64,000 bases of DNA, taken from positions 5,100 through 69,099 of the forward strand of contig CALWKO010000004.1 in assembly GCA_944381275.1 (NCBI GenBank). Reading direction: 5' to 3'. The notes under the pieces were generated by a model, which saw only the letters and a program-made list of their open reading frames with translations, searched no databases and had not been told where the DNA came from. The stretch is from an uncultured Clostridia bacterium (GTDB lineage: Bacteria > Bacillota > Clostridia > Christensenellales > UBA3700). The translations under genes were made by a program, and so were the position numbers. Shown piece by piece: positions 3,796-42,560 of this stretch. How positions within the stretch are numbered: the stretch's first letter is position 1; each line of letters starts with the position of its first letter.

Positions 3796-3931
3796 ATTTG
3801 CATAAATATTACCCTGTATATGCGTATGCGCGCAAAAAGTTGCGCGTATGTGGTTTACACGGCGCGATATTTATGATAAATTATATATGATACACTACTC
3901 GGCTATACACCTGCCGAACCAAGGAGCTATT

Positions 3932-10704: not shown

Positions 10705-10734
10705 GGGTAGCGGATTATCCGCTACCCTTTTTTT
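10705..10734 (+). terminator. intrinsic terminator of the permease gene
   Basis: Stem GGGTAGCGG / CCGCTACCC with a 4-5 nt loop, followed by T7. Confidence 0.8.
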
Positions 10735-10912: not shown

Positions 10913-12070
10913 CTACCTGAAATTCTCGTACTCATCGAGCAGCTCCTGCGAGATGCTGGGCGGGATCTTATCGAACGCTTTTTCGAACATGTCGCGGGTG
11001 AGGGGGATGGGGTTGGTGGAGCCGGCGGCTTGCAGTTTTTCCAGGGCGAGGCGGCAGGCTTCTTCTATTATGCCGCACAAATCGGCGGCGGAATAGTAGG
11101 CGGTCTGCGGCACTTTTGTGCCCATAGCCGTTTCCTTATATATAACGCCCTTGCTCATTGCGAGCACGTCCGCGAGGGTGACGCCGTCCAAAGCGATGCC
11201 CTTGAGCTTGCTTTCGATGATGGCGCGCTTTGCCTCTTCGTCGGGCGGGGTGACGTGGATGAGGTGGGAAAAACGCTTGTAGCGCAGATATGCCGGGTCG
11301 ATGACGTCGGGGCGGTTGGTGGCGGCTATCATGATGCGCTTGCTGCCGTCCACGCCAAAGCCGTTTATACGCTGCAAAAGCTCTGTGGTGACGGCGGCTT
11401 TGTAGTCCTTGGTGTCCTTGTCGCGGCGGGAGAAGATGGATTCGCACTCGTCAACGAACAGGATGGCGCCGTCCGGGCAGGCGTCCAGCTCCTGGAATAT
11501 CTGCTTTACCGCCTGCTCCGATTCGCCCACATACGATTTGAAGATATCCGCGGGGGTGACGATGAACAGGGGCAGATTCATGGCGTTTGCTATGGCTTCG
11601 GCAAACATGGTCTTGCCCGTGCCGGGCGCGCCGTACATGAGCATGCCCAAGCCGCCCTCCAGCTTGTAATACTTCAAGATTTCGGGATTTTGCGCCATGA
11701 ACATAAAGCTCTTGACCAGCTTTTTCACGTTGTCTAAGCCCTTGACGTCGTCGAAGGTGGTATCGGGCACGCGGCTCTTTATGACCGAGCCGTAACTTGC
11801 CGCCATGTCGCTGAGGCGCCTGAAGTAGTCCTTGTACTTCTTCACCTCGTCCTCGTCCGTGACGCGCTGGGAGAGGGTGTTGGCGATTTGAGCCGCACGC
11901 GAATATTCCGAGCGCAGCTTTGCCTTCACCTCGTCGGCTATCTTATTCCTGTCCTTCTTGCCCGCGAGCAGCTGACGAATCCTGTCAGTAGTGGCGTTGA
12001 AATCGCGCTCCAAAACCTCTACGGAATCTTCTTTGTCTTCTGACTTTTTTATTTTACCTATTCCTGCCAT
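10913..12070 (-). CDS. classic-clade AAA ATPase, Vps4/katanin/spastin-like, with a helical N-terminal (MIT-like?) region
   Basis: Walker A is MYGAPGTGKT and Walker B is ILFVDECE. The second region of homology is AATNRPDVIDPAYLRYKRFSHLIHVTPPD. The pre-ATPase motif F(D)DVKGLDNVKKL is present. The N-terminal ~100 aa are predicted helical. This is the last gene of the operon. Confidence 0.9.
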   Translation of the reverse strand: MAGIGKIKKSEDKEDSVEVLERDFNATTDRIRQLLAGKKDRNKIADEVKAKLRSEYSRAAQIANTLSQRVTDEDEVKKYKDYFRRLSDMAASYGSVIKSRVPDTTFDDVKGLDNVKKLVKSFMFMAQNPEILKYYKLEGGLGMLMYGAPGTGKTMFAEAIANAMNLPLFIVTPADIFKSYVGESEQAVKQIFQELDACPDGAILFVDECESIFSRRDKDTKDYKAAVTTELLQRINGFGVDGSKRIMIAATNRPDVIDPAYLRYKRFSHLIHVTPPDEEAKRAIIESKLKGIALDGVTLADVLAMSKGVIYKETAMGTKVPQTAYYSAADLCGIIEEACRLALEKLQAAGSTNPIPLTRDMFEKAFDKIPPSISQELLDEYENFR

Positions 12071-12084
12071 AATGCTTTCTCCGA

Positions 12085-12846
12085 TCAGGCGATGTCATCT
12101 ATGCCGCTTACGCCGCCCGACGTACCTGCGGTGCTTGCCGCGGCGGAAGCGGTCGCTGCGGGAGCGGAGCCCCCTCCTCTCTTCGCCTTTAATTCTGCCA
12201 CGGCTTGATCGATGAGCGCCTGCACGGGGCTGGGCGCGGCGGGAGCGCCGCTTGCCGCCGCCTTGCCGCTCATCTTGGCTTGGCGCTTCATCTGGCGCTT
12301 TCTCGCCCTGGCGGTGGAACGCTGCATGGATTCGGATACAGAACGCATTGCCTCAGCCATGTTCTGCGCCATCTTGGAGTAGTTCATGACCTCCTTGAAC
12401 ACGGTGATGATGGAGTTTACCGTATTCCTGTTCGCCTTCCTCATCTTTCTGCTGCGGCGCAGACGCGCGAAAAAGCCCATGGGCTGTTCGGTGAGGAATT
12501 CCGCGACCTGCATATTGAAGTTGAGCGCACTCTTCACCACACCCATCGCCTTTTGAATGGTGAGGATGGCTTCCTGCGAGGCGGTCATGACCTTGATGGT
12601 CTCCTGCATTTGCACTGCCATCTCTAAAAACATGACCATCATATGAGTAAGGTAGTGGTCCTCGCCGTAATCCAGAGTGGTCTCCGCCACCTGCATGGCG
12701 AGCGTTTTCACCTGCTCGTCGTAAGCCTCCCTCTGCTCTTGACAGAGCTTTTTTTGCCTGTCTATCTTTATGTTGCTTGCAATGGCGGCGGCCTGACTGT
12801 TTTCTTCTTCCGTCAGCCTTTCCTCTTCACTATGAAAACGTGACAT
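12085..12846 (-). CDS. helical protein, candidate ESCRT-III/Snf7/PspA-superfamily member
   Basis: The sequence is all-helical and Met/Ala/Gln-rich (NYSKMAQNMAEAMRSVSESMQRS), followed by a basic patch and an Ala/Ser/Gly linker. The terminal amphipathic helix is VQALIDQAVAELKAKR, with an acidic end GIDDIA. It lies 14 nt upstream of the AAA gene. Confidence 0.7.
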   Translation of the reverse strand: MSRFHSEEERLTEEENSQAAAIASNIKIDRQKKLCQEQREAYDEQVKTLAMQVAETTLDYGEDHYLTHMMVMFLEMAVQMQETIKVMTASQEAILTIQKAMGVVKSALNFNMQVAEFLTEQPMGFFARLRRSRKMRKANRNTVNSIITVFKEVMNYSKMAQNMAEAMRSVSESMQRSTARARKRQMKRQAKMSGKAAASGAPAAPSPVQALIDQAVAELKAKRGGGSAPAATASAAASTAGTSGGVSGIDDIA

Positions 12847-12858
12847 TGTTTTCCTCCT

Positions 12859-15800
12859 TTATTTGGTTACATATTTTTTCACGGCTTCGGCGAGGTTATC
12901 CCTCTCCGCCTCCGCATTGTTTACCCACTCGTGAGCGTACACGGCGTGCATGTTCCAGCCGCGCTCCTTTAAGATGTTGAAATACCTCATGTTGTAATCG
13001 AGGTAATTATAGTTTTTCTTGGTGGCGGTTTCGCACCAAATTCCCAGCTGCGCCCTCTTTAAATCGGGCGAGAGCACGGCGACGGGGATCCTGATCGACC
13101 CCTTGGTAACGCCGTAACCCACCACTATCCTGTCCTTGCTTATCCCCAGCGACTGCACGTAATCGGCGACGCTCGTGATAAAGCCCCTGCCGGGATTTGA
13201 GGACACGAATTGCGCCGCGCCGTCCTTGTTGAACAGTTCCGCCTTTACCATGTAATCGTGGATATACGCCACGTTTGCGCCGGTTATCTCGTAAGCGTGA
13301 ACGGAGTGCACGAGCGTGACGCTCGATTGTGCGCGCGTGACCGCCACGTTGAAGATGCACTTGCCCAGCTTGTCGCGGTTGAGCTGACCGAAGGCGTTCG
13401 TCACCCTGCCCTCCGGCGTTCTGCCGTAGGTGAGGGAGAGGATGAGATGCGCCGTTTCCTGCCCCTGGACGGTTTCGATCGTCTTGAAGAATATGAGTTT
13501 TTCGGGGACGTCGTCGAACTTGGAAAGCGCCGTATTTATCTTTGCATACAGTTCCTTGTTGGCGGAAACGAGCCGCTTTATCCGCTCTATCTGTTTTTCA
13601 CCGAAGGCAACCACGCCCGCCGATTGCGAGAGCGTGCCCGCTTTTTCATCGTAATAGCGGTCAAAATGCTCTTCCAGCAGTTCGACGACCGCCCTTGCCT
13701 CCTTCTCGTTCACGCCGCCGTCGCAATACCCGTCGACGTATACGTCCTTAAATCCCAGCCCTTCGTCCTTGGGCAAGGGCGCGGGGAAGGTGCGCATATG
13801 CGGATAGAACTGCTCTTGCGAAAATGCGATGAGCGATTCCGTCTTGCTCCTGTAATGGCAGAGCAGCTCCTCGGCGTGGAACGCCTGGTTGCGCAGGGCG
13901 AGAGTAAGGGCGGAGAGCTCGGGTTCGAGCACCATGGTTTCGGTGCCGTCGTCGGCTACAACGCGCCTTTCGTACTGTGCAACAAGGTGCTTGATGGGCG
14001 GCATCTGCCACTCGTCGCCCACTATCACGCACTGCTTGGACCTGAACAATACGGGCAGCAGACAGACGGGTTCCAGCTGGCTGGCTTCGTCCACTATCAC
14101 CACGTCGAAGTTTTCGTACTCTTCCGGCCGGAAGAGCACGGCGGCGGTGGAGGGGGTGATGATAAAGCACTTTTTCAGCTTTAATATGGCGCGGGCGTAC
14201 TTTTTGAATATCGAGCGCAGGGTGGCGGAAGGGTCGCGCTCTGCGTGCACAAAGGCAAAGTCGGGATCGTCGGGATCTATTTGCTCCATGCACTTGCGCT
14301 CGATGACGGCGGCGTTTGCCCTGAACAATTTCTCCTCCGCCCCGGCGAGCGCGTTCAGCTTGCTCTCCACCTTTTTGCCCAAGCCGTTTCGCCTTGCTCC
14401 CATGCCGCGCATCACCCCTTCCAGCGCAAGTCCGTAGAAGGAGTGCTCGAATATGTCGGGGATATTTCCCGCGGCAGACCCTTCCTCAATTTCTTTGAAG
14501 AAGGCGCGCAGCGGCTCCGCGCCCGCTATCTTCCCGTAACCGAGAGCGGCGGAGATCAAGTCCCTGTTCTTAGCTTCACGCATAAAGATGTCCATATCCC
14601 CCATGGTGACGGTGAATACGCGGGAATAGTGATTTTCGTAATAATTCTTGCCGAAGGCGCGCAGGCGGACGAGCAGCTCCTTGAGCTCGTCTTTTATGCG
14701 GGAGGGGGCTTGCTGCAGGGCGCAGAACCTGTTGTGCTTTTCCTCTAAACTCATCACCTTGACAGAGGGCAGGGAGAACATCCTGCGCACGGCGAGCAGA
14801 GAGCGGGCGAAATTCACCTCTCCGCCGCTGCCCTCAATGTTCAGCTTGCGGCGCGCCTTTTCCGCCTCGAATTTGAGCTTGGCAAAGGCGAACTCCGCCT
14901 CGCAGGAGAGCCTTAGCTCGCGCACGGTCAGCTTTGCGCGCTCTTCTTCATCTATGTGCGCGGCTTCTGCCAGGGCGAGGACGGCGGAGCCGTACAGCTT
15001 GGCATCCTCCGCCAAAGCGGCGAACGGTACGCCCCTGTCCGTCATCTTCTTTACTGTGGCAAGGCATTGCGCGTCCTTATCTTCCGCCTGCTTGCCCAGC
15101 AGTCTGCTCAGCAGGCTCATATTCTTTTTAACTCTCTCCCCGCACTCGTGGGCGGCGAGCACCTTGCCCGCTGCCAGCACCAGCTCGCGGAAGGAGACGT
15201 CCGTCAAAAAGCTGAATTTGCGAATATCTTCGGCGGCTTTTTTGCCCTTGAAGTCGAAAAGACTCGGCTTTTCTCCGCCTTCTATGTATTTTGCCAGCAC
15301 CCTGCCCGCCTGCACTATCTCCTCGTAATTTTCCTTGCACGCTTCCTTTTTAAACACCTTGCATGCGGAATAGAGGAGCTCGCCGCGCTTTTCTTCGTTT
15401 TCCTCTATCTGCGCAACGAGCGCGAGCCTGTCGTCCAGCTCCTTCTCCCTAATGGGTTTGCCGTCCGCGCCGAACAATATATCGCCGCATTCGGCGAGCG
15501 TTTTTACCCTGCCTACGGTAATATCGTCCAAAAGTGAGGGCGGGCAGAGCGTTGCCGCCCCTTTCATCTCGTCCAAATCCGCGCCATTTATCTCGCGCCT
15601 GTGACGGGAGAGCGCGTAATAATCGTCAAGGGCTCTTTCCGGGTCGGAAAAATCCATATTTGCGGCGACTATCTTTTCGAACTCGTACTTGCTCAAATCA
15701 GAACGCATTAGCTCGAAGACGTCGTAGAGGGCAAAGCCGCCTTCCGCCTCCTCCGCGCCCCTGAAGTAGAGGCTTATTTTGGGCATGAGCTCTTCCGCTT

Positions 15801-17367
15801 TTGCCGCCAAGCCGGAGTACTCCTTATACGCTCCTTCCCAATCCGTCCCCCTGCCTATGCCCAGCCACGGGCTTTTTGCCAAAGGGTGCGCTCCGCCGTC
15901 GGTGAGGCGGAGGAAGTATTCCGCCGCCTGCCTGACCGCGTTATACATAAGGCGGTATTGCTCTGCGCCGAGCGCGGCAGCCTGCTCCGGAAGGAGGAAT
16001 TTCACAAGCGGCAGATCTTCCTTGAGGAAGACGTTGAGCGCGTCGTAATAAGTGCCGCCAACTATCCCCTCGCCCGTAAACGTCTTTTCGTAATAGTCGG
16101 CGAGGAAGGCGGTGGCGGAGGTTATCTCCGCAAAGGCGGCCTCGCGGGAGCGCTCATGCTTTTTGTCGAAAGTGTAACTCTTGCGCGCCTTGACCAGCTC
16201 GCCCAAGTGCTTTTTTACGGCGGAGGGGTTCATCTTTGCCGTCTGCGCCTCTGTTTCAAAGTCCATGAGCATGGCGAACTTGCGCAGCTCCTCGGGCAGT
16301 TTTGCGTTCACTTCGCTCAAAGCCGAGAGCTTTTTTGAAGCGAGAATGACCTTCTTCCCCTGCGCCATGAGGGTGGCTATCATGTTGGCTATGGTGAGCG
16401 TTTTGCCCGTGCCGGGCGGACCCTTGATGATGAGCGATTCGCCGTTCACGGCGCGGCGGATCATGTTCTCCTGCGCGCTGTCGTAAGGGAGCACGAAGTC
16501 GGGCACGATGTCCCCGTCCGTCCCCTCTTGTGGCGCTCCCTCGGTAAATATCTTCTTTACCAGGGGGTGAGCGTATATCTTGTCACGATTGCGCTTGATG
16601 TCGTAATACATGCATATGTCGTTGTGATTGTATTGCGCAATGGCGATGACGTCCTTGTCTAAGCTGAACACGGTATCTGCCTCTATGTCCCCTCTGCGGC
16701 AGCTTTCCGCATACTTTTCCGCCGCCGCAAAGTAAGCCGTGCCGTCCCCCAGCGCCTGCATATCGATGGGGTCGTCGAAAGCGCCCGTCCCGTTAGGATG
16801 GGGAAAGCCGTCTGTCGTTTCCGGCGCGAGCACTTGGCGCATTTTGTGGATGAGGCAAGGGTTGAAGTATGCCTCGTCGTCCACAAACTCGATATACACG
16901 GGCTTGGTGGCGGTACTGCCTATCAGTCTGATGGGGAAGATGAGCAGGGGCGAAGTCACTTCCTTCACCTCGTCGCGCGTGACGTTCACCTTCCACCTTA
17001 GCGCGCCTATGCTCAAAAACAGGGGGTTGTTGCCCTTTAAGTTGAGCTCCTTGTAGGCGGCGGTGATAAAGGCGTTCAGCTTTGCCGCGTCCTTGGCGCC
17101 GCCGCCGTCTGCCCAGTCGAAGTCGTTTATCTTCCTGCCCACCATCTGGTCGCCGGAGAGGGAGCTGCCGCGCAGTACCGTATTGCCCGGCTTGCCAATC
17201 CTTTCCCTGATTATATCCAGCGCGTACTTTGCAAGGTCGGAGTGGAGATAGTGCGAAAGATAGTAGGTGTCCCCCGCGTCACCCGCATTCAAGTCTATCA
17301 GCTTGTTCTTCGTACCTTCGTTTATATGAAGAAGTTCTTCTATAAACGGTTCCAAATAGTCCTGCAT
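12859..17367 (-). CDS. SF1 Upf1-like helicase (DUF4011-type N-terminus, AAA_11/AAA_12 core) with a C-terminal restriction-endonuclease-like/DUF3320-like region
   Basis: It has NPLFLSIGALRW...SPLLIFPIRL, Walker A IIKGPPGTGKT and Walker B VVIVDEASQ. Further helicase motifs are VGDEWQMPP, CHYRSKTESLIAFS, TVQGQETAHLILSL and NVAVTRAQ. The tail is LGIWCET...ILKERGWNMHAVYAHEW. Confidence 0.9.
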   Translation of the reverse strand: MQDYLEPFIEELLHINEGTKNKLIDLNAGDAGDTYYLSHYLHSDLAKYALDIIRERIGKPGNTVLRGSSLSGDQMVGRKINDFDWADGGGAKDAAKLNAFITAAYKELNLKGNNPLFLSIGALRWKVNVTRDEVKEVTSPLLIFPIRLIGSTATKPVYIEFVDDEAYFNPCLIHKMRQVLAPETTDGFPHPNGTGAFDDPIDMQALGDGTAYFAAAEKYAESCRRGDIEADTVFSLDKDVIAIAQYNHNDICMYYDIKRNRDKIYAHPLVKKIFTEGAPQEGTDGDIVPDFVLPYDSAQENMIRRAVNGESLIIKGPPGTGKTLTIANMIATLMAQGKKVILASKKLSALSEVNAKLPEELRKFAMLMDFETEAQTAKMNPSAVKKHLGELVKARKSYTFDKKHERSREAAFAEITSATAFLADYYEKTFTGEGIVGGTYYDALNVFLKEDLPLVKFLLPEQAAALGAEQYRLMYNAVRQAAEYFLRLTDGGAHPLAKSPWLGIGRGTDWEGAYKEYSGLAAKAEELMPKISLYFRGAEEAEGGFALYDVFELMRSDLSKYEFEKIVAANMDFSDPERALDDYYALSRHRREINGADLDEMKGAATLCPPSLLDDITVGRVKTLAECGDILFGADGKPIREKELDDRLALVAQIEENEEKRGELLYSACKVFKKEACKENYEEIVQAGRVLAKYIEGGEKPSLFDFKGKKAAEDIRKFSFLTDVSFRELVLAAGKVLAAHECGERVKKNMSLLSRLLGKQAEDKDAQCLATVKKMTDRGVPFAALAEDAKLYGSAVLALAEAAHIDEEERAKLTVRELRLSCEAEFAFAKLKFEAEKARRKLNIEGSGGEVNFARSLLAVRRMFSLPSVKVMSLEEKHNRFCALQQAPSRIKDELKELLVRLRAFGKNYYENHYSRVFTVTMGDMDIFMREAKNRDLISAALGYGKIAGAEPLRAFFKEIEEGSAAGNIPDIFEHSFYGLALEGVMRGMGARRNGLGKKVESKLNALAGAEEKLFRANAAVIERKCMEQIDPDDPDFAFVHAERDPSATLRSIFKKYARAILKLKKCFIITPSTAAVLFRPEEYENFDVVIVDEASQLEPVCLLPVLFRSKQCVIVGDEWQMPPIKHLVAQYERRVVADDGTETMVLEPELSALTLALRNQAFHAEELLCHYRSKTESLIAFSQEQFYPHMRTFPAPLPKDEGLGFKDVYVDGYCDGGVNEKEARAVVELLEEHFDRYYDEKAGTLSQSAGVVAFGEKQIERIKRLVSANKELYAKINTALSKFDDVPEKLIFFKTIETVQGQETAHLILSLTYGRTPEGRVTNAFGQLNRDKLGKCIFNVAVTRAQSSVTLVHSVHAYEITGANVAYIHDYMVKAELFNKDGAAQFVSSNPGRGFITSVADYVQSLGISKDRIVVGYGVTKGSIRIPVAVLSPDLKRAQLGIWCETATKKNYNYLDYNMRYFNILKERGWNMHAVYAHEWVNNAEAERDNLAEAVKKYVTK

Positions 17368-17376
17368 ATCTCCTCC

Positions 17377-19278
17377 TTACTCGGATATATTCAAATATTT
17401 TTTGCAATCATTTGCAAAGCCGCATGCGTCCGTCTCCATTATCTGCACGCGGTAAGCCCAATAATCGCCGATGTTCGTATAGCTGCCCCTGTTGTAAGTC
17501 CAGCTCTCCACCCTGCCGGCGGTGACGCCCAGCTCTTCCCACATCCACGGCTGCCAGCCGTTTTTGGACGCGTGCGCCTGAAGGGCGTGCATGCTCTCGT
17601 GAACGGTGATGTCGGCAGCTTCGTCCAGCAGCTCCGCCGCGCTGTTTTTAAAGAGTATCTCCCTGCCGTCCTTGCAGCATACGCCGATTGCCCTATCGTA
17701 CTCCTTTCCCAAAAAGCAAAAGTCGTCGTGAAACTGCACGTCGGGCACGATCCCCGTGCCCATCAGCTGCATTACGGCGCGAGTGGCGGCGGTGATCGCC
17801 TCCCTCTTTTCGCTCACGTCCTTTTTCTCCCACAGCGTCCTTCTGTTTTGGCAGTTGTAGAAGTACTCTATTATCTTAGCGCACTTTTCCCACAGGGAGA
17901 TCCTCTTTTCGACTATCTCCCTTATCGCCTCGCGGCTGTCTTGAGGCAGGCAGCCGTAATCGAAGGGCAGCTTGCCGCCCAGCTTTTGCTCCGCCTGAGA
18001 GATGAAGTCGCCCCAATCGCACGGGAGCAGATATTCCTGCTTTTCCGCCTTGCGCAAAAAGACGAACGCGCTCCTGCTCCTGCCCTCGTCGCACAGCCAG
18101 TCTAGAGCGCTCTTCCAGCCCCTTCCTCTCCTGTGCTCCCTAAGCGCTAAGTTTATGCCGACATAGCCCATAAAGGCGTATTTTTCGGGCAGGCTCTCCC
18201 CTTCGCCGAGCATTCCTTCCTGCCTGAAAATATCCTCGGCAAACTCGCGCGAAGGCAGGGGCAGGCGCCTTAATTGCGCGGCTCCGCCGCCGGTGCGGTA
18301 TATCTCCGCGTCGCCGCTTTCGTCCAATATTATCGCCGCTCTGCCGCCGGCGGCGTAAGAGGACGCCGCCTTAATCACGCCAAGCTTGTTTGCGCCCGTG
18401 TATCTGCCGAAGTCGGTGATGAACACGTGGGCGCCCGCCTGCGCAAAGCGGGCGAATATGCCGCTTAAATCGAGCTCGTCCTTGCCCGTGAACTTGTCCG
18501 CTCCCACTTCAAGTATAGTCCCCTTCAAGCAGTGCACGGCGGCCAGCTCCGCTTCGTCTATAAACGGGGTGTTGAGCACTATCGCCGCGCAGACGGACGA
18601 TAAGTCCGCTTCCGGGAAGAGGGGAAAGCTCTCCCACTCGGTGACGCCGCGCAGACTGCGCGCTTCCTTGATGAGCTCTTCTTCTTCCCTTCTCCTGATC
18701 CCTTCGGCGCACTTGCGGGCAAAGTCCGCCGCGCCGTTTAATTCCGCGATCACCGCGCCCTTTACGTCGATAAACTCCACTCCCTTGTTGAACAGCGGAT
18801 CGGGGACGCTCATATCGGCTATGGCTTGCGCCTTTTCTTCGAATATCCGCTCCACCTCCGCGCACTCCGCCTTAGACGAGGTCATGGGGGAGCCGTCGGA
18901 CGAGCGCACGCGCGCGGCTTGCATGGGGGCGTCGCTTATTATCTCTCCTATGCTCTCCGCCAGCTTGGCAACGCTTAAAATTATCCTCTCGGTGTTGGCA
19001 AAGCCCTTGGCGCGGGCGGCGGGAGCGGCGCTTTCCGCAAAGTCCTGTATCTCCTCTTCCTTTTGAAGGCTGCACTTTTCCTGCAGATATTCCAAAAGCA
19101 GGCGCTTTGCCCTTATGCGCCAAAGCAGGGATAGCGCCCTGTCCTTGTTCTTTTCGTAGACGTACTCGTCCTCCGCCGCGGCGGCGAGCGCGCTTTCCTG
19201 CCGCTTGAGCTCACAAACGTCGATGAGGCGGAAGTACGCCTTGTTTGCTTCGTCCAATATGTCCGTTACGCTGCGCAT
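17377..19278 (-). CDS. HExxH metallopeptidase-like protein with a helical N-domain and a degenerate AAA-like middle (paralog 2)
   Basis: HESMH is encoded at 17587-17601, with a downstream QIMETDA. The protein is clearly paralogous to the upstream gene along its full length. AGGAGGGG RBS is present. Confidence 0.85.
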   Translation of the reverse strand: MRSVTDILDEANKAYFRLIDVCELKRQESALAAAAEDEYVYEKNKDRALSLLWRIRAKRLLLEYLQEKCSLQKEEEIQDFAESAAPAARAKGFANTERIILSVAKLAESIGEIISDAPMQAARVRSSDGSPMTSSKAECAEVERIFEEKAQAIADMSVPDPLFNKGVEFIDVKGAVIAELNGAADFARKCAEGIRRREEEELIKEARSLRGVTEWESFPLFPEADLSSVCAAIVLNTPFIDEAELAAVHCLKGTILEVGADKFTGKDELDLSGIFARFAQAGAHVFITDFGRYTGANKLGVIKAASSYAAGGRAAIILDESGDAEIYRTGGGAAQLRRLPLPSREFAEDIFRQEGMLGEGESLPEKYAFMGYVGINLALREHRRGRGWKSALDWLCDEGRSRSAFVFLRKAEKQEYLLPCDWGDFISQAEQKLGGKLPFDYGCLPQDSREAIREIVEKRISLWEKCAKIIEYFYNCQNRRTLWEKKDVSEKREAITAATRAVMQLMGTGIVPDVQFHDDFCFLGKEYDRAIGVCCKDGREILFKNSAAELLDEAADITVHESMHALQAHASKNGWQPWMWEELGVTAGRVESWTYNRGSYTNIGDYWAYRVQIMETDACGFANDCKKYLNISE

Positions 19279-19287
19279 CTTCCCCTC

Positions 19288-21213: not shown

Positions 21214-21216
21214 GCC

Positions 21217-23849: not shown

Positions 23850-23861
23850 ATTGCCTCCTTA

Positions 23862-26800: not shown

Positions 26801-27773
26801 TTTCCCCGCTCCTGCCGAACCAGGTGGGCAGTATCTCGCCCTCGACAATGCCGTACGATTCGCGGTCGTATTTGAAGGTGACGTAAACTTCCCCCTCGTC
26901 CAAATTGCAAGGCAGGATGTTCGCCGCCACGGAGAACAGTTCATCGCTGTTTTCCTCGTCTGCGGCGGCATAGAAGTTGGTGCGCAAATCGTCTATCTCC
27001 CCTTTATCCGCATAGATAACGGGGAAGAAGCCCGTGTAATTATTCAAAAGACTCACGTCCTCTACGGCTATATCCGCATCCGCTTGGATATATACGCTTT
27101 CTATGCCCTCCTGGGTGAACAGTCCCGCGCTGACCGCGCTCACCTTCTTGCCGTTGAAGGTTTGCGGAATGACGACGTTTTCGCCCTTGCCCTCGAGCGC
27201 GCTCTTTACCTCGTAACTGTCCGTTGCGCTGTGATAGGTATATGCCAAGGTGCGGTTTTGGTCGCCGAACTGCTGACCGAAGAAGCCGCGGTCGAACAAG
27301 AACGCGGAATACACCGCCGCCGCGCACACAATAACCGCCACGCATATTACGGCAAACACGGCGTTAAAGCCCTTGAGCTTTGCCGCATACAATGAGGTGA
27401 GGATGATGACCGCCGCCGAGACGAGGTGCATGACCATCCAAAGCGCCGTTGCCGCCGTGGTGAGGGCGGAGCCGGAGCCGGAATCTCCGCACACGGTTAT
27501 GCCCAGCACGCTTAAAATTATCGCCGCCAGCGCATAGCCCGCCGCCACTCCCGCGGAATAGCGGAAGCGGAAGTTGGTGAGCGCCGCCAAAATAATGAGC
27601 GCGATGTCGAAGGCGAGCAGCAGGCAGGGCATGATGAAGTAGAGCGGAGCAAAGCCGCCCACGCCCAGCACGGCGACGGCGAATATGTCCGCCGCCGCAG
27701 CCGCCGCTGCCGCCGTGAGGACGGGCCACTTGCGGCTTTTTATCATCTTTTCCGTTAAAGTCGCGCTTTTCAT
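23862..27773 (-). CDS. polytopic membrane-anchored giant surface protein with an LRR_5-like segment and many MBG-type repeats
   Basis: AAGGAGGG RBS is present and an ATGA overlap links it to the upstream gene. The N-terminal ~170 aa contain 5-6 hydrophobic helices. At least 10 repeats of the type ..F.YDG......V......NAG.YT.T..L...NY.I follow. Confidence 0.85.
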   Translation of the reverse strand: MKSATLTEKMIKSRKWPVLTAAAAAAAADIFAVAVLGVGGFAPLYFIMPCLLLAFDIALIILAALTNFRFRYSAGVAAGYALAAIILSVLGITVCGDSGSGSALTTAATALWMVMHLVSAAVIILTSLYAAKLKGFNAVFAVICVAVIVCAAAVYSAFLFDRGFFGQQFGDQNRTLAYTYHSATDSYEVKSALEGKGENVVIPQTFNGKKVSAVSAGLFTQEGIESVYIQADADIAVEDVSLLNNYTGFFPVIYADKGEIDDLRTNFYAAADEENSDELFSVAANILPCNLDEGEVYVTFKYDRESYGIVEGEILPTWFGRSGEIFDISEYEEDFPYMLHSDKNSAADLYWCDVNFGGYIFSGPVNDYGAAMTDMRITEGMSLQASFERVYRVYIGEDNDEVYETALTYKNTELEGQTLEYRYAVPSTADELLESIPAREGLSVESWNYTWYEGGTQLNMRTPFSQLLGSASTSSNEIYVFPQWKVNDSVITITGGTSFTYGDEVVLGADVTAPAEGFGLAYDWQGAAITSAESGQSVDLGLLAPFNSGNYSVTVTASAPEITSLQGETTAAVYVNVAKKTVDFEWTLPSEYTGFSQTAICAPEEGAEVDGNEIQYAMSGAAVRNAGNYTASVYLTSDSGDYYSISAATASVSFTVARAEVSAQWDSTLSFVYNGSAQYPAVTIQGIGEDGALEYTLSGNPVNAGQYTVRATLASGNYILTNPTAQVTITARPITVNWREGVSYSYNGSVQNPAVQSINGEVTGEETSIIRSLSYSIISGGGVNAGEHTVEVTLPEGNYVFSDAQTYTYEISKRTVATTYWDTNSFVYNGREQHPAVTQIPGALNDEDEQMLLGSLVYGGGQVNAGSGYTVTVTLDAENYELNAAYDTYSFSISRRGVTLVWQEECNFIYDGTDKGLSVLRAENLAEGDDMSDLHLYTGVAEGTAVNAGNYTMTARLGSDNVNYMIAGGGSALFIIERRGVTLVWQEERTFTYDGTEKSITVVSAENLASGEELADLNISCLNNSASDAGEYTASAVLGSDNYTITSGASASFTIEKRGVTLVWQEERTFTYDGTRNSIVVESAENLAEGDSLNSLDLTYRVNGGASDAGDYVTTAILGNDNYTITSGESAAFTIAKREVTLVWDGETSFEYSGEAQYPKVESVNNLASADDMDDLDITYGGFGADAGHYTVTANIGSANYTAIGAECEYDITAKTVTVTWRGEEFIESGEPQAPSAEVSDEGAEAFIVYTYYNKEGQALEGMPSAAGEYYVTASSASDNYAVDAGSARKDFTIAAAQEEEQA
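24132..25091 (-). repeat. intragenic tandem repeats (four units of about 234-249 bp) encoding MBG-type domains
   Basis: The units start (K/R)RGVTLVWQEE(R/C)(T/N)F(T/I)YDGT. The DNA string CCTCCTGCCACACGAGCGTTAC recurs near 24586, 24820 and 25066. Confidence 0.85.
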
Positions 27774-29473: not shown

Positions 29474-29477
29474 AAGC

Positions 29478-32306
29478 TCACTCCGTCCTGTCGTTAGCCA
29501 AAACGGCCTTTATATCCGCGACCTTGTCCGCTTCCGCAAGCAGATTGCTGCAAAAAGCCCTGCCGCCGTCGTGCGTGTACTGCCATGCCGCGCGTATGTA
29601 AGTGGCGAAGGTGCGCGCCACGATGGGGCGCAGCACGCCCTCCTTGCACATGGGGCACTTTGCCTCCCACCTTTCGTTGAATTCCAGCACATGCGGCCTG
29701 GGGACGCACTCGGCGTATTCGCAAGTTGAGCACGCCTTTATGGCGTCCTTTCCGCTCACCACATTCCCGCCGCCGTCCTTTCTCCAGAATTTACAGTCGT
29801 CGGGGCATTCGTAACGATTGGCGCACTTGTAGCACAAAAGCGCGAGATCCGCGTCCTCTATATCGGGGGTCTTGCGGTAAGCGCTCAGCGCCTGGCACCA
29901 ATCTTCGCCGTTCTCCTTGCACTGCTTTTTAAAGAAGGAGCAGTGGGACATGGCGCATATCTTGCGGCAGTAAACGCTCCTGTCGCCCCTCTCCCCGCTG
30001 TTGCACATAATGCCCTTATCCGTATTGTTGGCGGCAAGGCACATATAGCCTTCGTCCGTGACCGAGCGGGCGAACACCTTGTCGCAGTCGCTGCACTTGA
30101 AGTCGTAAACGCTTATCTCCTCCATCTTGGTGCCCTTGGGGTCGTCCTGACGGCAGAGCTGAGTTTCGCGGCAGTAAAGCTCGTCCCTCTTCTTTTTAGC
30201 CTCGTAATCTTCCAGCGAGTAAAGCTTCACGCTCCTGCACACGGGGCAGCGCACGGTGACCATGCGCTCGCTGTTGCTGCCCGCGATTATGGTGGCGTCG
30301 CCGCTGCTGCTGTACATCAGCCCTATGCGCAAAAAGTACATGAGCACATAGCCTTCCAGCTTGTTCATCTGCGCGAGCGAGTATATATGCACCTGCTTTT
30401 CCGTTTGACCCAGGCGGAAGATCCTGCCTATCCTCTGGTCCATGGAGAGGGGATCGGGGGTCACCTCGAAGTTGATTATGATGGAAGAAGCCTGCAAGTT
30501 GACGCCCTCGGTGAAGGAAGGGTCCTCTATCACGAGTATGGCGTCCTCTTTTTTATTGAACTTTTCCACCGTCTTGTTCTTGTTCAGCGCGCCGCCTTCC
30601 AGCACTCTGCCGGCAAAGCGTTCGTCCTTGGCAAGCTCTTGGACAAAGCGTTTTGGTTCGGCGGCGGGATCCTTCACGTCGTAGTCGAAGAATACCAAAA
30701 TGCGCTTGCCCGCATGCTTTTGCAAAATCTGCTTGGCAACTTCCGTCTTCTGCGCAAAGCAGTCGTTTTTGCAGTTGTAGGGCACTATGCGGTAGCGCGC
30801 CTCGTCGGGGTCTATCTTCGCCATTTGGCTGCCGTAATAGGTGCCCGAATTGCTCTTTTCGAATATATCTTCCGGCATGCCCACGGCGTTTATTATGTTG
30901 ACGCTCACCATGTCCGCATACGCCTGGGCAAAGCTCTTGCTGCCCCTGTTGTCCTCGATATACTTACTTAAAGACATCACTTCCCCGTCCTGCGCGGTCA
31001 CGGCTTTTTCACCATAGAGGTTGGCGAGGTCCACCTTCACCCTGTCGCCCGCTATGCCGCCCGTTTCTATCACCCCGGGGGCGTTTTTCATGGGGAAGAA
31101 CAGGAAGTTGTGCAGCACCTTGCTCTTGTTTATGGTGTTGGGCTGGCGGATCATTATCGAGCGCAGCACGCCGTTGTGATAGGCGCTTGCAACGCGGTCG
31201 AGCACGTTCTTTTTTATATCCTTGCCGTCTTTTTTATATCCCTTGTCCAAAAAGCTCTGCACGTACAGGAACTTTTCCCCTTCGGTGAGCCCGTTGAAGT
31301 CCTTCACGCCTTCACCCTTAAGGTAGACGGCAAATTCCTCGGGATATTCCTCGCACACCGCCTTTATCTTCACCTTTTTGATGAACTCCATTACGGTGGC
31401 GGCGCCGTAGCAGATGTGGTTTTTATAATACTCCTTTTCCTTGCGGTACTGCTCGGTGCGGTTCATGTCGTCCTTCTCGTCGAAGTCGGAGGGGTTGCCG
31501 CCGCTGCAGCGGATGAAGTACCACAGGCGGAACATGTGCTCCAAATTGCCCGTGTGAGGGGTGGCGGAGAGGAGAAGGCAGTAGGTGGAATCCGCCTGCT
31601 TTTTGGTTTGAATCATGAGCGAAAGCAGCTTCATCGCCCTGGCATACTTGCCCTCTTCCGCGCACAGGTGGTGCGCTTCATCCACCACTATCACGTCGAA
31701 GAGCAGCCTGCTGGTGTCCTCCGGCCAGGAGACGAAGTCCTCTGTTTTGACTATCATGGGGCGCTTGGGGCGCAGGATGTTTTCTCCCACGTGCTCGCAT
31801 TCGATGCTCGATATATCCAAGTTGCCGCCCTCTTCTTCAAGCACGCCCTTGCCCAAACCGAACTGAACTTCCAGCACCTCCTTCCACGTGCCGTAAACTT
31901 GGTCGGGCACGATGAGGAGCATGGAGTGCAGCTTGCCCCTTGCTGCAAGCTCGCTTAACACCACGCACGCTTCGTACGTCTTGCCGCTGCCCACCACGTC
32001 CGCGAGCAGTCCGAAGCCGCGCAAATCCCTTAAAAAGGAGAGCGCAGCCACCTTTTGATGACCCAAGATGACGCTGTCGTTAAAGCCCGTCTTTACGGGT
32101 ATGCCGTACTCGCCGCCCTTTTTGGCGTAGGAGGCGGGATCTATTTTGAAAAAGCCGAAGTCGTCGTATCTGTCCAGCTCTTCCACCGCCTTATTGGTTT
32201 CGTAAACGCCCTTGTTGAACGCCTTCTTATTCGTGGATATGCCCGCCCTTTGCATATCCCCGTCGAATGCCGAGTCCTCTACCTTGATTTTAAAATTCCT
32301 CTTCAT
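29478..32306 (-). CDS. SNF2-family helicase with a Cys-rich C-terminal extension
   Basis: It has LLADVVGSGKTYEA, VIVVDEAHHL, LLLSATPHTG and GVNLQASSIIINFEVTPDPLSMDQRIGRIFRLGQ. The last ~280 aa contain more than 25 Cys. The start is set at ATG 32306, preceded by GAGGTGG. An alternative ATG at 32318 overlaps the upstream stop. Confidence 0.88.
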   Translation of the reverse strand: MKRNFKIKVEDSAFDGDMQRAGISTNKKAFNKGVYETNKAVEELDRYDDFGFFKIDPASYAKKGGEYGIPVKTGFNDSVILGHQKVAALSFLRDLRGFGLLADVVGSGKTYEACVVLSELAARGKLHSMLLIVPDQVYGTWKEVLEVQFGLGKGVLEEEGGNLDISSIECEHVGENILRPKRPMIVKTEDFVSWPEDTSRLLFDVIVVDEAHHLCAEEGKYARAMKLLSLMIQTKKQADSTYCLLLSATPHTGNLEHMFRLWYFIRCSGGNPSDFDEKDDMNRTEQYRKEKEYYKNHICYGAATVMEFIKKVKIKAVCEEYPEEFAVYLKGEGVKDFNGLTEGEKFLYVQSFLDKGYKKDGKDIKKNVLDRVASAYHNGVLRSIMIRQPNTINKSKVLHNFLFFPMKNAPGVIETGGIAGDRVKVDLANLYGEKAVTAQDGEVMSLSKYIEDNRGSKSFAQAYADMVSVNIINAVGMPEDIFEKSNSGTYYGSQMAKIDPDEARYRIVPYNCKNDCFAQKTEVAKQILQKHAGKRILVFFDYDVKDPAAEPKRFVQELAKDERFAGRVLEGGALNKNKTVEKFNKKEDAILVIEDPSFTEGVNLQASSIIINFEVTPDPLSMDQRIGRIFRLGQTEKQVHIYSLAQMNKLEGYVLMYFLRIGLMYSSSGDATIIAGSNSERMVTVRCPVCRSVKLYSLEDYEAKKKRDELYCRETQLCRQDDPKGTKMEEISVYDFKCSDCDKVFARSVTDEGYMCLAANNTDKGIMCNSGERGDRSVYCRKICAMSHCSFFKKQCKENGEDWCQALSAYRKTPDIEDADLALLCYKCANRYECPDDCKFWRKDGGGNVVSGKDAIKACSTCEYAECVPRPHVLEFNERWEAKCPMCKEGVLRPIVARTFATYIRAAWQYTHDGGRAFCSNLLAEADKVADIKAVLANDRTE

Positions 32307-32314
32307 AATCCACC

Positions 32315-34468
32315 TCATTCGCTCATTGCGTCAAATTCTTCCATGCCTTCGAACCTGAGCTCTATTTCGTCGGCGGGGACGACGGTTTCGTTTTTCGTCC
32401 AAATATCCCTGTCTTCGTCGAGCAAGTAATGCACCCTTGCCATTCTTCCGAAATTGTCCACTTTGTTATTTAAGATGATGGGCGTTGCCACGCCGTCGGC
32501 GTCTATCCTAACCCCTTCGCGGTAGTAGATGAAGGTGTTGATAAGGCTCACCCTTATCCCCTTGTGGTAGTAGAATATGCGCGAATCCCTGCCGCCGGAA
32601 ACCACCCTGAGCCCCAAGTACTTTTCCAGATTGGAGCGCCACTTTTTTTCGCTTTCGCTGACCGTCGTGCCCGACTTTTCCACATACACGTATCTTTTGC
32701 CGCCGCCGCCGTAAGTCTGCCCGCGCATTTCCGGATGCGACCGCGCCGTTTCGTATACTTTCTCTCTCCTTACGGTGAGGGAATATATCTCGTCCCCTTC
32801 CGTGCACTTGACTTCGCCCTCCTTCAGCCCCAGCCTGCAGGGGAAGGTGAAGACGTTCAAGCCGTCGCTGCGCAAGACCTGCCCTTTGCCGGCTATCATG
32901 GCGAGCATCTTGTGTCCGTGGAGGACCTGCTCTGCTTCGGTGGGGAATTGAGGATAAGACCAGGAGGCGTAGGTGAGCGAGAGGCACACCTTTATTTGAA
33001 TATCCTCCAGCGCGACTATCGCCGCACCCACGGCGGCGGCGTAGGTGGAATCCTCGTAAGTGCCGATGGAAAACCCGTCCTGCCCGTCCTTTTCTTCGTC
33101 GAAGGTGATTATCTCCGCGTCGGCGTTTGCCTTGTGCACCCGCTGCTTTATGTAATCGAGCAAACCGTACGTTTCGGCAAGTCCGCCCGATATTATCATC
33201 TTCTTCACGTCCTTGTTTATTTCAAGCGCAAGTTCGTTAATGATGTAGGCGGCTATCTCCTTGGCAACCCCGACCTTGCCCGAGCCGAGCCCTATGCATG
33301 CCACGAACGCTTCGCGCGTCAAGCTGCGCTGAATGTGCACGTCCCTGACCAAGTTGACGGGCACTCCGCCGGGGAATATCTCCTTGCTTTGAGGCACGCT
33401 GAGCAATATCTTCGCCTTTTTTATGTTCTTCATAAAGAGGTATTGCTCTTCCCTAAGGCCCCTTTCCACGATGTGCCCTTCCTCGCCGTAGGAGGGGGTG
33501 CCCATCGTTTCCCTGTCCTTTATCTCCTCTTCTATGTGCTCGGCGACCGCCCTGTCCACGTCGTTGCCGCCTATTTCGCAGGGCGCGCTGTGGCCGTCCG
33601 CGCCGTCGATGATCAGTTCGCCCATGCCGTCCACATTGGCGCGCGTGACGGAGATATCCGTTTCGCCCAAATCGAACACGAGCGCGGAATCGTTCCTGCC
33701 TATCATCCCGCGGTGCATGGCGTAAATGCTGAGCGCCTTGGTGGAGCTGAGCGATTTTTCCGGCGCACGGCCGAAGGCTTTCTCGATAAGGCGCTCCAGC
33801 TCCTGCTGATACTCCTTGCACGCGCCGGAGGGATAGATGGCGGCTATCTTTATCTGCCCGGCGAAGGCAAGGGATTCCGTTTTGAATCCGCGCAGCGCGC
33901 CGCGCAAAATCTCATCGCCCTGCCTGCCGTTCTTTATCTCCTCCACGTCCTTTTTTACCTTGGCTTCAAGGGCGGGAATGCGCGCAGTGATCAGCTTTGC
34001 CACGTATTCAAAGAACTTTTCGCACACGCTCTGTGGCGAAATGCCCCCGTCGAAGGTCATCTTCATGCTGACCATCTCGTTGAAGTCGGAGAGCACTTTC
34101 CTGCTCACGGGAAAATAAAACTTGGGGAACATCGTCCCCTCGCGATAAAACTTGGCGTTGCGCGCGCGTATTTCCGTTGCCTGCTTCCTGCCGCCCTTCC
34201 CCGCGGGCACATGGGAGAGCATGCCCAGCAACGTCTTTATCTTGACAACGGTGGTGAAAGAAGAAGATTTTTCCCTGCTCACATCATAGCCGAAGCTCCA
34301 TTTGCCCTCCTGCTCGTCGTAGTAAGCGATGGCGGGTACGGCAACTTCGGTAGGCAGACTTTCTTTGGAGATCTTTCCGTAAAAAACCTTTCCTGCCAAA
34401 TCAAAGGCATACGCCGCCTTTAAGGTGTCGCTGCCCAGATCCAAGCCGATGTTTAAGGTAATACTCAC
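32315..34468 (-). CDS. Hsp70/actin-fold ATPase (DnaK/HscA-like NBD) with a divergent C-terminal domain
   Basis: It uses a GTG start with GGGGG 8 nt upstream. Phosphate-1 is IGLDLGSDT, phosphate-2 is LVFDLGETDISVT, and the adenosine motif is IISGGLAETYGL. No canonical DnaK substrate-binding or EEVD region is evident. Confidence 0.88.
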   Translation of the reverse strand: MSITLNIGLDLGSDTLKAAYAFDLAGKVFYGKISKESLPTEVAVPAIAYYDEQEGKWSFGYDVSREKSSSFTTVVKIKTLLGMLSHVPAGKGGRKQATEIRARNAKFYREGTMFPKFYFPVSRKVLSDFNEMVSMKMTFDGGISPQSVCEKFFEYVAKLITARIPALEAKVKKDVEEIKNGRQGDEILRGALRGFKTESLAFAGQIKIAAIYPSGACKEYQQELERLIEKAFGRAPEKSLSSTKALSIYAMHRGMIGRNDSALVFDLGETDISVTRANVDGMGELIIDGADGHSAPCEIGGNDVDRAVAEHIEEEIKDRETMGTPSYGEEGHIVERGLREEQYLFMKNIKKAKILLSVPQSKEIFPGGVPVNLVRDVHIQRSLTREAFVACIGLGSGKVGVAKEIAAYIINELALEINKDVKKMIISGGLAETYGLLDYIKQRVHKANADAEIITFDEEKDGQDGFSIGTYEDSTYAAAVGAAIVALEDIQIKVCLSLTYASWSYPQFPTEAEQVLHGHKMLAMIAGKGQVLRSDGLNVFTFPCRLGLKEGEVKCTEGDEIYSLTVRREKVYETARSHPEMRGQTYGGGGKRYVYVEKSGTTVSESEKKWRSNLEKYLGLRVVSGGRDSRIFYYHKGIRVSLINTFIYYREGVRIDADGVATPIILNNKVDNFGRMARVHYLLDEDRDIWTKNETVVPADEIELRFEGMEEFDAMSE

Positions 34469-34499
34469 TTTTATTCCCCCTATTATTTATACAATATAC

Positions 34500-34528
34500 A
34501 TTCTATCACACTTCGACAATAAACGCAA
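34500..34528 (-). promoter_or_regulatory. candidate promoter of the 11-gene operon
   Basis: On the minus strand it reads TTGCGT, a 17-nt spacer, then an extended -10 (TGaTAGAAT). It lies about 30 nt upstream of GTG 34468. The -35 is weak. Confidence 0.35.
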
Positions 34529-34607
34529 CAATTTTCTACAAATTAAACTTAATCTAAAAAAGAAGTTGTAATAGTTACAACTTTTTAATACTTGACATAC
34601 GTAGGCA

Positions 34608-34637
34608 AAAAAAGTCCGCAAGACACGCTTGCGGACT
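34608..34637 (-). terminator. intrinsic terminator downstream of carB-dapF
   Basis: A 9-bp stem (GTCCGCAAG/CTTGCGGAC) with a 5-nt loop is followed on the minus strand by T7. It probably insulates the carAB transcript from the operon promoter. Confidence 0.75.
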
Positions 34638-34656
34638 CGATCTTTGCTTTTTTCGG

Positions 34657-34704
34657 CGGGTTACCCGCACACGAGCGCGGCGGGTTACCCGCACACGAGC
34701 GCGA
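34657..34704. repeat. perfect 24-bp tandem duplication in the carB-dapF 3' region
   Basis: GCGGGTTACCCGCACACGAGCGCG occurs twice, back to back. Confidence 0.9.
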
Positions 34705-34847
34705 CGGAGCGGTTTTAGCGAGGTAGGTTTCGTTCGATTTTGCACGAGATGACGCGAAGTTGTAGCAGCGCTACTACGAGTCGGCATATCGTGTAAAAGC
34801 GGGCGGAAGGTGCCCGCTTAAACCGCTCCGCCGCGGTCGGGGGCGGG

Positions 34848-39974: not shown

Positions 39975-40128
39975 AAGCCCGTCCTTGTTCTTTTATTTCT
40001 TCGTAAGAAGTTGTAGCCTTTTTATTGTCTGTCGTTTTATGCGAAGACGCCTTCCTCGGCTCCCTCACATCGGGGCGCAGCAGCCGCGCCCGCCATTGGG
40101 GATGCAACGTCCCACGCTGCCGCGTTGC

Positions 40129-40465: not shown

Positions 40466-42559
<2,094 letters not shown>

Positions 42560-42560
42560 G

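Follow-up and report, generated by a model that had tools for sequence, protein, structure and literature searches.

What kind of system is encoded by eleven tightly packed genes that, taken together, match no described gene combination? The genes lie on the minus strand, from position 34468 down to 10913, of a 64,000-nucleotide stretch of contig CALWKO010000004.1, from a chicken-gut Clostridia genome; this whole stretch is referred to as the window, and positions are counted along it. The locus was first singled out in a note made from the letters of the window alone (the original prediction), which suggested a new multi-component conflict or membrane-remodelling system. We find that the window operon is an extended form of an eight-gene system and that the eleven genes are not the conserved unit. 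The system is real, conserved and functional, and it is undescribed as far as the libraries and the searchable literature show. Our preferred reading, to which we assign a probability of roughly 40%, is that it is a membrane-anchored, three-ATPase conflict system directed against phages or mobile DNA and restricted to Christensenellales-like gut Clostridia.

The genes are numbered g1 to g11 from the upstream end of the operon. Those found in all forms of the system are termed core and the remainder accessory.

32315-34468, minus strand: g1, core, Hsp70-like ATPase, 717 amino acids (aa), GTG start
29478-32318, minus strand: g2, core, SNF2 ATPase with a Cys-rich tail, 946 aa
27770-29473, minus strand: g3, core, Zn-ribbon protein with a predicted orphan fold, 567 aa
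23862-27773, minus strand: g4, core, membrane protein with four transmembrane (TM) helices and MBG repeats, 1303 aa
22725-23849, minus strand: g5, core, Zn-ribbon/Sel1-like protein, 374 aa
21217-22725, minus strand: g6, core, putative coiled-coil protein, 502 aa
19288-21213, minus strand: g7, accessory, HExxH zincin-like peptidase, 641 aa
17377-19278, minus strand: g8, accessory, paralog of g7, 633 aa
12859-17367, minus strand: g9, accessory, protein with DUF4011, superfamily 1 (SF1) helicase and restriction endonuclease (REase) domains, 1502 aa
12085-12846, minus strand: g10, core, helical protein, 253 aa
10913-12070, minus strand: g11, core, classic-clade AAA ATPase, 385 aa

The predicted arrangement of these eleven consecutive open reading frames (ORFs) was reproduced with the ORF list and a junction script. 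From g1 to g11 the spacers are -4, +4, -4, +12, -1, +3, +9, +9, +12 and +14 nt, with the predicted ATGA overlap of g3 and g4 at 27770-27773 and a single base common to g5 and g6 at 22725 (TAATG); a further 4-nt overlap joins g1 and g2 at 32315-32318. GGAGG-like Shine-Dalgarno sequences, predicted at nearly every start, precede most of the starts and are weaker for g2, g3, g7 and g11.

The distribution of the system was scanned with an alignment of the AAA ATPase (g11) against one genome per GTDB species. This retrieved 191 relatives of g11, the most conserved protein of the system, of which the best 80 are 61-89% identical. Almost all of these 80 are labelled as Clostridia (Christensenella, Borkfalkia, Coproplasma and relatives), with a few Bacilli/Anaeroplasma, and nearly all come from metagenome-assembled genomes; the closest is from Candidatus Alloclostridium intestinigallinarum. 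Among Christensenellales-like gut Clostridia, more than 80 species-level genomes show a matching gene order, which also occurs in metagenome contigs.

We then mapped the window proteins onto the loci from the AAA scan and onto metagenome loci centred on g3, and typed 77 loci (individual loci carry L numbers). The expectation that all eleven genes co-occur in a fixed order held for the order, which is kept in the more than 80 genomes, and failed for the number: the conserved core consists of the eight genes g1, g2, g3, g4, g5, g6, g10 and g11. The forms are as follows.

20/77 loci: minimal form, g1-g2-g3-g4-g5-g6-g10-g11 (complete in L100)
51/77 loci: core with g7 and g9 between g6 and g10
2/77 loci: core with g7, peptidase only
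4/77 loci: core with g7, g8 and g9, in the window's clade only

A cassette of g7, with or without g8, and g9 is present in 57 and absent from 20 of the 77 typed loci, with extended forms exemplified by L011 and L096. Its site is constant, between g6 and g10 and on the same strand. The helicase-nuclease gene g9 (55 loci) is always embedded in the operon and never occurs without g7, and the duplication of g7 that gave rise to g8 is limited to the window's clade (window, L011, L016 and L017). Every locus with a visible upstream half (L096, L098, L099, L100 and L102) is headed by g1. In a neighbour-joining tree of the AAA proteins, the minimal form makes up one large clade and three separate occurrences. 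Because it appears at no fewer than four places on this tree, we conclude that the cassette was gained or lost repeatedly.

Comparison of the window with L011 and L017, which share its flanks, separates the operon from its surroundings. The flanking genes are 80-93% identical at the protein level. Over the same comparison, the identities are 83% for g11, 70% for g2, 64% for both g9 and g7, 58% for g5, 56% for g3, 52% for both g8 and g4, 45% for g10 and 27-32% for g6. Order-wide, the AAA protein retains ~69% identity and its partners 24-31%. Within the species, all genes with scorable differences show a ratio of nonsynonymous to synonymous polymorphism (pN/pS) of 0.05-0.20 (g1 was not scorable and g11 had no differences), which indicates that the genes are functional. 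The lack of nonsynonymous change in g6 is due to the choice of contigs by exact g6 sequence. The highest within-species diversity in the operon is that of the membrane protein g4 (pS 0.048 and pN 0.008, against L001-L010). All four same-species contigs compared show the same genomic context. Compared with the flanking genes, divergence of the system proteins is much faster, even though purifying selection acts on them within the species.

The protein assignments of the original prediction stood for most of the operon. Pfam, profile and hydropathy evidence supports the SNF2 helicase (g2), the Hsp70-like ATPase (g1) and the membrane protein with four TM helices and MBG repeats (g4); the Upf1-like helicase with an REase tail (g9) was recovered by Pfam, the two HExxH paralogs (g7 and g8) carry an invariant motif, and g5 combines a Zn-ribbon with a weak Sel1 signal. 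The exception is the pair g10-g11, discussed below.

Two of the predicted catalytic proteins resemble defence proteins. The g2 protein has the Pfam domains SNF2-rel_dom, ResIII and Helicase_C, with motif I at 31971-31994 and DEAH at 31668-31688, followed by a C-terminal tail (~29550-30248, the last ~250 residues) that contains 22 Cys. Its best PADLOC and NCBIfam matches are DrmD, BrxH and DpdE, all far under the cut-offs (107 bits against a cut-off of 610 for DrmD). In g9, the Pfam domain order is DUF4011, AAA_11, AAA_12 and MTES_1575, the last being a C-terminal PD-(D/E)xK-type REase domain at 12883-13122. The Walker A motif lies at 16399-16422 and is separated from Walker B by an insertion of ~700 aa, giving a split SF1 core; both motifs are kept in 56-57 of 57 homologs. 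Among the PADLOC models g9 matches PDC-S37 (E=3e-111) and Hhe (E=7e-53), and among the NCBIfam models ProA with 365 bits (cut-off 1500) and Hhe with 252 bits (cut-off 2000).

By its motifs, g1 is a very divergent predicted Hsp70/actin-fold ATPase. Phosphate-1 (DLGSDT), phosphate-2 (FDLGE) and adenosine (SGGL) motifs are recognisable, and the match to Pfam HSP70 (E=0.0014) is below the cut-off. Searched against the PDB, the family profile of g1 matches only Hsp70/DnaK nucleotide-binding domains, weakly (E 0.06-0.6); the single sequence found no match there, and the C-terminal ~220 aa have no match. In L096, dnaK-like and dnaJ-like genes, judged from their N-terminal sequences, stand directly upstream of g1 (1584-4822 of that locus). 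This adjacency is not conserved in the other loci and is probably coincidental.

The remaining core proteins between the SNF2 ATPase and the cassette are a membrane protein and a set of proteins largely outside annotated families. For g3, g5, g6, g7, g8 and g10, searches of Pfam, NCBIfam, PADLOC and PHROGs returned no substantive family, with only a chance-level match for g3 and no match at all for g5 and g6. The g3 protein has an N-terminal alpha/beta region followed by several C-terminal Cys4 Zn-ribbons, and its family shows eight invariant and three more nearly invariant Cys, consistent with several ribbons. An AlphaFold2 model built with 84 homologs reached a predicted local distance difference test (pLDDT) score of 90.2 and a predicted template modelling (pTM) score of 0.76. 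Foldseek comparison of g3 with the PDB and BFVD gave nothing at E<=0.001, with TM-scores <0.13, and on this model g3 is an orphan fold, predicted with confidence. The family is small, with 187 representatives among 1.84 billion proteins.

A hydropathy scan placed the four TM helices of g4 at aa 47-154 (27312-27635). They are followed by ~1150 aa of MBG/Ig-like repeats, predicted to be extracellular (Pfam MBG_3, E=2.5e-9, and MBG_2), and the length of the protein ranges from ~1000 to 1670 aa across species. The g5 profile matches Sel1-repeat proteins in the PDB at E=0.0026-0.07. The g6 protein, for which the coiled-coil label comes from the original prediction, is fast-evolving and poorly conserved, and its acidic disordered tail ends in a conserved short motif, which is PFSDDDM in the window and PL[SG]DDDK, I(N/T)DIV or IISTITKK elsewhere.

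The accessory g7 carries a C-terminal zincin-like HExxHxxQ motif at 19504-19527, matched in g8 by HESMHALQ at 17578-17601. The H, E, H and Q residues are invariant in 59/59 homologs of this family. Searches with g7 identified no relatives in the PDB or Pfam, the PDB profile search giving only chance matches to designed coiled coils. Only six clusters of the g7 family are present in an index of 5.8 billion proteins, and all those looked up have the same operon context.

The last two genes behave as a pair. In every locus g10 adjoins g11, and in L098 the two were moved together to a position upstream of g1. Two tandem g10 paralogs are present in L032 (8466-9976) and L069 (8597-9987), and an extra, truncated AAA-like gene (288 aa) lies between g10 and g11 in L092 (9070-9936) and L093 (7053-7919). 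These g10 duplicates and additional AAA-like genes indicate that the module undergoes paralog expansion in some species. L098 also contains inserted genes, encoding a 206-aa protein (6151-6771 of that locus) and a hydrophobic 275-aa protein (3373-4200). A KLDG motif in the 206-aa protein recalls nucleotidyltransferases and ligases; no relative was found in the PDB and a ligase identity is unconfirmed.

Several of these observations point to a conflict system. The cassette of peptidase and helicase-nuclease was repeatedly gained and lost at a fixed position, and the nearest relatives of the catalytic subunits are defence proteins (PDC-S37, Hhe and ProA for g9; DrmD, BrxH and DpdE for g2), with g11 also matching the PADLOC IetA models (E=3e-32). 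Divergence is well above that of neighbouring genes and is combined with purifying selection within the species; the membrane protein g4 has a variable, surface-exposed repeat region; the same gene order is maintained across more than 80 genomes at species level; every catalytic motif is conserved; and g10 and g11 remain adjacent, relocate together and form paralogs. The presence of the cassette in 57 of 77 loci with absences at at least four places on the tree, the confinement of g9 to loci with g7, and the inserts of L098 indicate a modularity of the conflict type. This pattern suggests that the core provides sensing and scaffold functions and that the cassette supplies swappable effectors.

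We propose the following arrangement. The g4 protein would fix the complex at the membrane, where its repeat stalk may report events at the cell surface or may itself be the point of contact. The proteins g3, g5 and g6 would scaffold a cytoplasmic assembly in which the g2 SNF2 motor engages double-stranded DNA near the membrane. In extended forms, the g9 helicase-nuclease would degrade that DNA and the g7 peptidase may act as a second effector or as an activator. Assembly and reset would be controlled by the Hsp70-like g1 and the AAA ATPase g11. The N-domain of g11 probably docks onto the C-terminal motifs of g10, and perhaps of g6, and would then unfold or disassemble these proteins; this putative docking is meant as a functional analogy to adaptor-driven AAA unfoldases, not as homology to ESCRT-III/Vps4. 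Surface events would in this way be passed to a DNA-translocating, optionally DNA-degrading cytoplasmic complex whose state is set by an AAA unfoldase. Whether Hsp70-like, SNF2 and Cdc48-like AAA motors, orphan-fold Zn-ribbon scaffolds and a membrane anchor with a surface stalk together make up a new class of immune machine that signals in this manner is a more doubtful proposition, which we put forward tentatively.

Comparison with PADLOC, NCBIfam, Pfam and PHROGs gave no assignment at the system level, in agreement with the original prediction; only generic SNF2, SF1 and AAA matches below curated cut-offs were obtained. Full-text searches of the literature found no description of this gene combination. 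The nearest validated analogue, in logic, is ietHAS, which consists of the AAA ATPase IetA, the protease IetS and the SNF2 helicase IetH, and which was shown experimentally to be anti-phage and to need all three activities (PMC13069673). The window operon has in common with IetAS/ietHAS that an AAA ATPase occurs together with a protease and an SNF2 helicase of the DrmD type. However, the protease here is an optional HExxH zincin rather than a subtilase, the IteA score of g11 is 103 bits (cut-off 510) and is exceeded by its CDC48 and PAN scores, and seven further conserved genes have no Iet counterpart.

In architecture g9 agrees with Hhe, ProA and PDC-S37: DUF4011 is followed by an SF1 helicase that contains a large insert, and an REase domain lies at the C-terminus. 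In contrast to the single-gene systems Hhe and ProA, g9 is never free-standing in these loci: its place is between g7/g8 and g10 of a larger operon, a quarter of the systems lack it, and its scores lie far under the equivalog cut-offs given above. The SNF2 core of g2 is most similar to the helicases of DISARM (DrmD), Dpd (DpdE) and BREX types 2/3 (BrxHI/BrxHII), but DrmA/B/C, methyltransferase, PglZ, BrxC and Dpd genes are all missing from the operon, and the 22-Cys tail is unique to g2. Membership in DISARM was rejected, the other ten proteins matching no DISARM component. The original prediction had already noted the lack of a methyltransferase, of PLD (DrmC in DISARM) and of DUF1998 (DrmB). 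Mokosh comprises an MkoA/MkoC helicase with a PLD nuclease (MkoB or fused); here g9 gives only partial matches to MkoA and MkoC (80-85 bits) and a PLD domain is found in none of the proteins, so Mokosh membership was rejected as well.

Zorya couples a MotAB-like ZorAB membrane complex with the SNF2 nuclease ZorD. The likeness to the present system would be functional only, namely a membrane component coupled to a cytoplasmic SNF2 ATPase and nuclease activity. The ZorD match of g2 is weak (14 bits against a cut-off of 1500), there is no MotAB-like ZorA or ZorB, g4 being a 4-TM anchor with MBG repeats and no PADLOC match, and the Hsp70-like and AAA ATPases are additional here. CoCoNuT type III systems are McrBC-derived and include the Hsp70-like CnuD, the SF1 helicase CnuH, coiled coils and accessory AAA ATPases (PMC11090510). 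A degenerate Hsp70-like ATPase, an Upf1-like SF1 helicase, a putative coiled-coil protein, Zn-ribbons and an AAA ATPase likewise share one operon in the window, but an McrB GTPase, McrC/DUF2357 and a HEPN domain are found in none of its eleven proteins.

The operon is bounded by an intergenic region of 379 bp upstream of g1 (34469-34847) and by a convergent permease gene downstream. The predicted terminator of the upstream carB-type gene and the candidate promoter were both recovered as sequence features, and the predicted downstream permease terminator was found as a hairpin at a distance of 186 nt from the g11 stop codon instead of the 178 predicted.

34482-34509, minus strand: promoter-like site, GTGATA-16-AATAAT, upstream of g1 (consensus match only)
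34612-34638, minus strand: terminator-like hairpin assigned to the carB-type gene upstream; operon boundary on the 5' side
10705-10727, scoring on both strands: GC-rich terminator-like hairpin between the operon end and the convergent permease gene

Near the promoter-like site an extended -10-like element, TGTGATAGAAT, was also read from the sequence. The hairpin at 10705-10727 has a perfect 10-bp stem, with a T-tract that is good on the plus strand and poor on the minus strand. Its probable role is to terminate the convergent permease gene, and perhaps also the operon.

On one side, the flanking genes encode a GH38 mannosidase, an alcohol dehydrogenase and a xanthine/uracil-type permease, and on the other a carB-type protein, glutamine synthetase III, KsgA and TatD (Pfam). 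The prediction that no integrase, transposase or tRNA flanks the operon held: Pfam scanning of ten flanking ORFs, three of them unmatched, found no integrase or transposase, and the whole window contains zero tRNA genes and zero Rfam matches. No GC step was seen at the operon borders. Homologs of g5 were found in neither phage nor plasmid collections, and g11 has none in IMG/VR, where the single match (L103) is a generic AAA protein at 26% identity. An origin in a mobile element was therefore rejected.

Three flanking ORFs had no Pfam match at E<=1e-5: 7010-7861 (283 aa), 38937-40016 (359 aa) and 43599-44474 (291 aa). The carB-type ORF, at 34848-38894 on the minus strand (1348 aa), encodes a carbamoyl-phosphate synthase large chain that is complete and is followed at the C-terminus by a diaminopimelate epimerase domain (DAP_epimerase in Pfam, E=3e-63, with the best stretch at aa 1226-1341), and is either a real CarB-DapF fusion or the product of a lost stop codon or sequencing error. 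GC content is low at 1-2000 (0.436) and at 42001-44000 (0.488) relative to a window mean of ~0.55; the latter interval includes a ~1-kb ORF-poor stretch at 42559-43599.

Part of this evidence weighs against a conflict system. The operon lies outside any defence island, and a search for such a context was negative: the genes just downstream in other genomes fall into 129 distinct families, which are for the most part metabolic or housekeeping, with only ~5 matching PADLOC (E<=1e-10). Mobile-element genes are lacking around the operon, and searches of phage, plasmid and IMG/VR sequences gave no homologs. Neither a nuclease nor any other toxic effector can be recognised among the eight genes of the minimal form. 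For coiled-coil and repeat proteins, fast divergence needs no arms race. The distribution is largely vertical and clade-specific and, with the high conservation of the AAA protein, also fits a housekeeping role.

Accordingly, the strongest of the alternatives is a lineage-specific housekeeping machine at the interface of membrane and DNA, vertically inherited and serving, for example, chromosome or envelope organisation, cell-surface or aggregate formation, or protein quality control, with the nuclease/peptidase cassette as a secondary acquisition. We consider it unlikely, while taking it seriously. The flanking genes are of the kind this alternative would favour: carB and the permease in the window, genes resembling gltX, rpsF and ssb upstream in L100 (judged from N-terminal sequences only) and the dnaK-dnaJ-like genes of L096. 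Downstream flanks vary between subclades and are kept within them, even across forms with and without the helicase, and the architectures follow clades on the AAA tree. The 61-89% identity of the best 80 of 191 AAA relatives, purifying selection, absence from the collections of mobile DNA and the want of an obvious toxic effector in the minimal form all agree with it. However, the system proteins diverge far faster than their neighbours in the same genome pair, the likeness of the catalytic subunits is to defence helicases and nucleases and not to any housekeeping orthologs, repeated gain and loss of a cassette would be unusual for such a complex, and the ~190 species-level matches may cover just part of the order.

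A second alternative holds that the operon is a composite, in which an autonomous Hhe/ProA-like defence module and its zincin partner or partners are nested in an unrelated eight-gene operon, so that the eleven genes do not act together. Its attraction lies in g9, whose domains are those of stand-alone defence proteins, and in the 20 of 77 loci that dispense with the cassette. The details of the cassette argue otherwise: it is found at one site only, between g6 and g10, on the strand of the operon and with spacers of 3-12 nt, and it has no terminator or promoter of its own; g9 does not occur without g7 and falls far below the Hhe and ProA cut-offs; and the g7 family, in those clusters looked up, is seen only inside this system. 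We regard this explanation as improbable.

The original prediction also described g10 and g11 as an ESCRT-III-like protein with a Vps4-like ATPase, that is, as a bacterial membrane-remodelling module coupled to the helicases. It is true that g10, which is small and all-helical and has a disordered tail and a conserved terminal motif, adjoins an AAA ATPase with a helical N-domain, as in ESCRT-III/Vps4 (CdvB/CdvC) or PspA/Vipp1, and an adaptor-type coupling of the two is possible; paralog duplications of both genes occur, and g11 has a weak, sub-threshold match to Vps4_C (E=0.0039). The AlphaFold2 model of g10 (pLDDT 68) shows three long helices, one short helix and the disordered tail, in which a G/S/A-rich linker leads to a conserved DI[DS]DI-type motif (GIDDIA at 12088-12105). 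The protein also has two basic patches that are conserved, and its N-terminus is acidic rather than amphipathic. The ESCRT-III fold, an alpha1-alpha2 hairpin with alpha3-alpha5 packing, is not supported by this model, which is of moderate confidence. None of 13 g10 homologs matches Snf7 or PspA_IM30 (PF03357 and PF04012), even at E<=1, and the g10 profile has no PDB match at E<=10. Foldseek of the model against the PDB gave nothing below E=0.7; ESCRT-III and PspA are absent from the top 50, and the top matches, all non-significant, are BAR and eisosome proteins. Alignment with hhalign returned probabilities of 0.8% for CHMP4B and 0.2% for PspA, both reference sequences having been entered by hand. 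Membership of g10 in ESCRT-III or PspA-Vipp1 was thus rejected by hidden Markov models, Foldseek and hhalign.

The ATPase likewise falls outside the Vps4/CdvC group of meiotic-clade AAA proteins, and its AAA domain is not closest to Vps4, katanin or spastin. In g11, which matches Pfam AAA at E=3e-32, the helical N-domain spans 11756-12070 and Walker A 11609-11632. The best solved relatives are the D2 domains of VAT/Cdc48/p97 (E ~1e-64 to 1e-58), and the 60 best PDB matches listed are all two-domain Cdc48-type AAA proteins (VAT, Cdc48, p97, NVL, AFG2 and Rix7), matched mostly through the second domain. All NCBIfam scores are below cut-off, with CDC48 (152.9 bits) and PAN (132) above CdvC (122, cut-off 650) and IteA. 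A profile of 27 g11 N-domains found no MIT domain in the PDB or Pfam at E<=10, nor does the N-domain have a match of any kind in these two databases. With no detectable homology by sequence, profile or fold for g10 and an AAA protein nearer to the Cdc48 D2 domain, the ESCRT-III/Vps4 reading is very improbable, and its failure cautions that a helical protein adjoining an AAA ATPase is insufficient for an "ESCRT-III/Vps4-like" label.

Little studied so far, the gut lineage Christensenellales is heritable and has been linked to host health. There is no precedent for an Hsp70-like ATPase and an SNF2 motor that are joined with a Cdc48-like AAA ATPase and tied to a surface-exposed membrane protein. 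At least six of the families are without annotation, among them the confidently predicted orphan fold of g3, and these are targets for structural and mechanistic work. The optional cassette of peptidase and helicase-nuclease provides a natural experiment that separates sensing and scaffold from effector functions. If the system serves defence, it would add a kind that is completely missed by PADLOC, NCBIfam and Pfam-based annotation; if it is instead a housekeeping machine, it would point to an unrecognised cell-biological process specific to this lineage.

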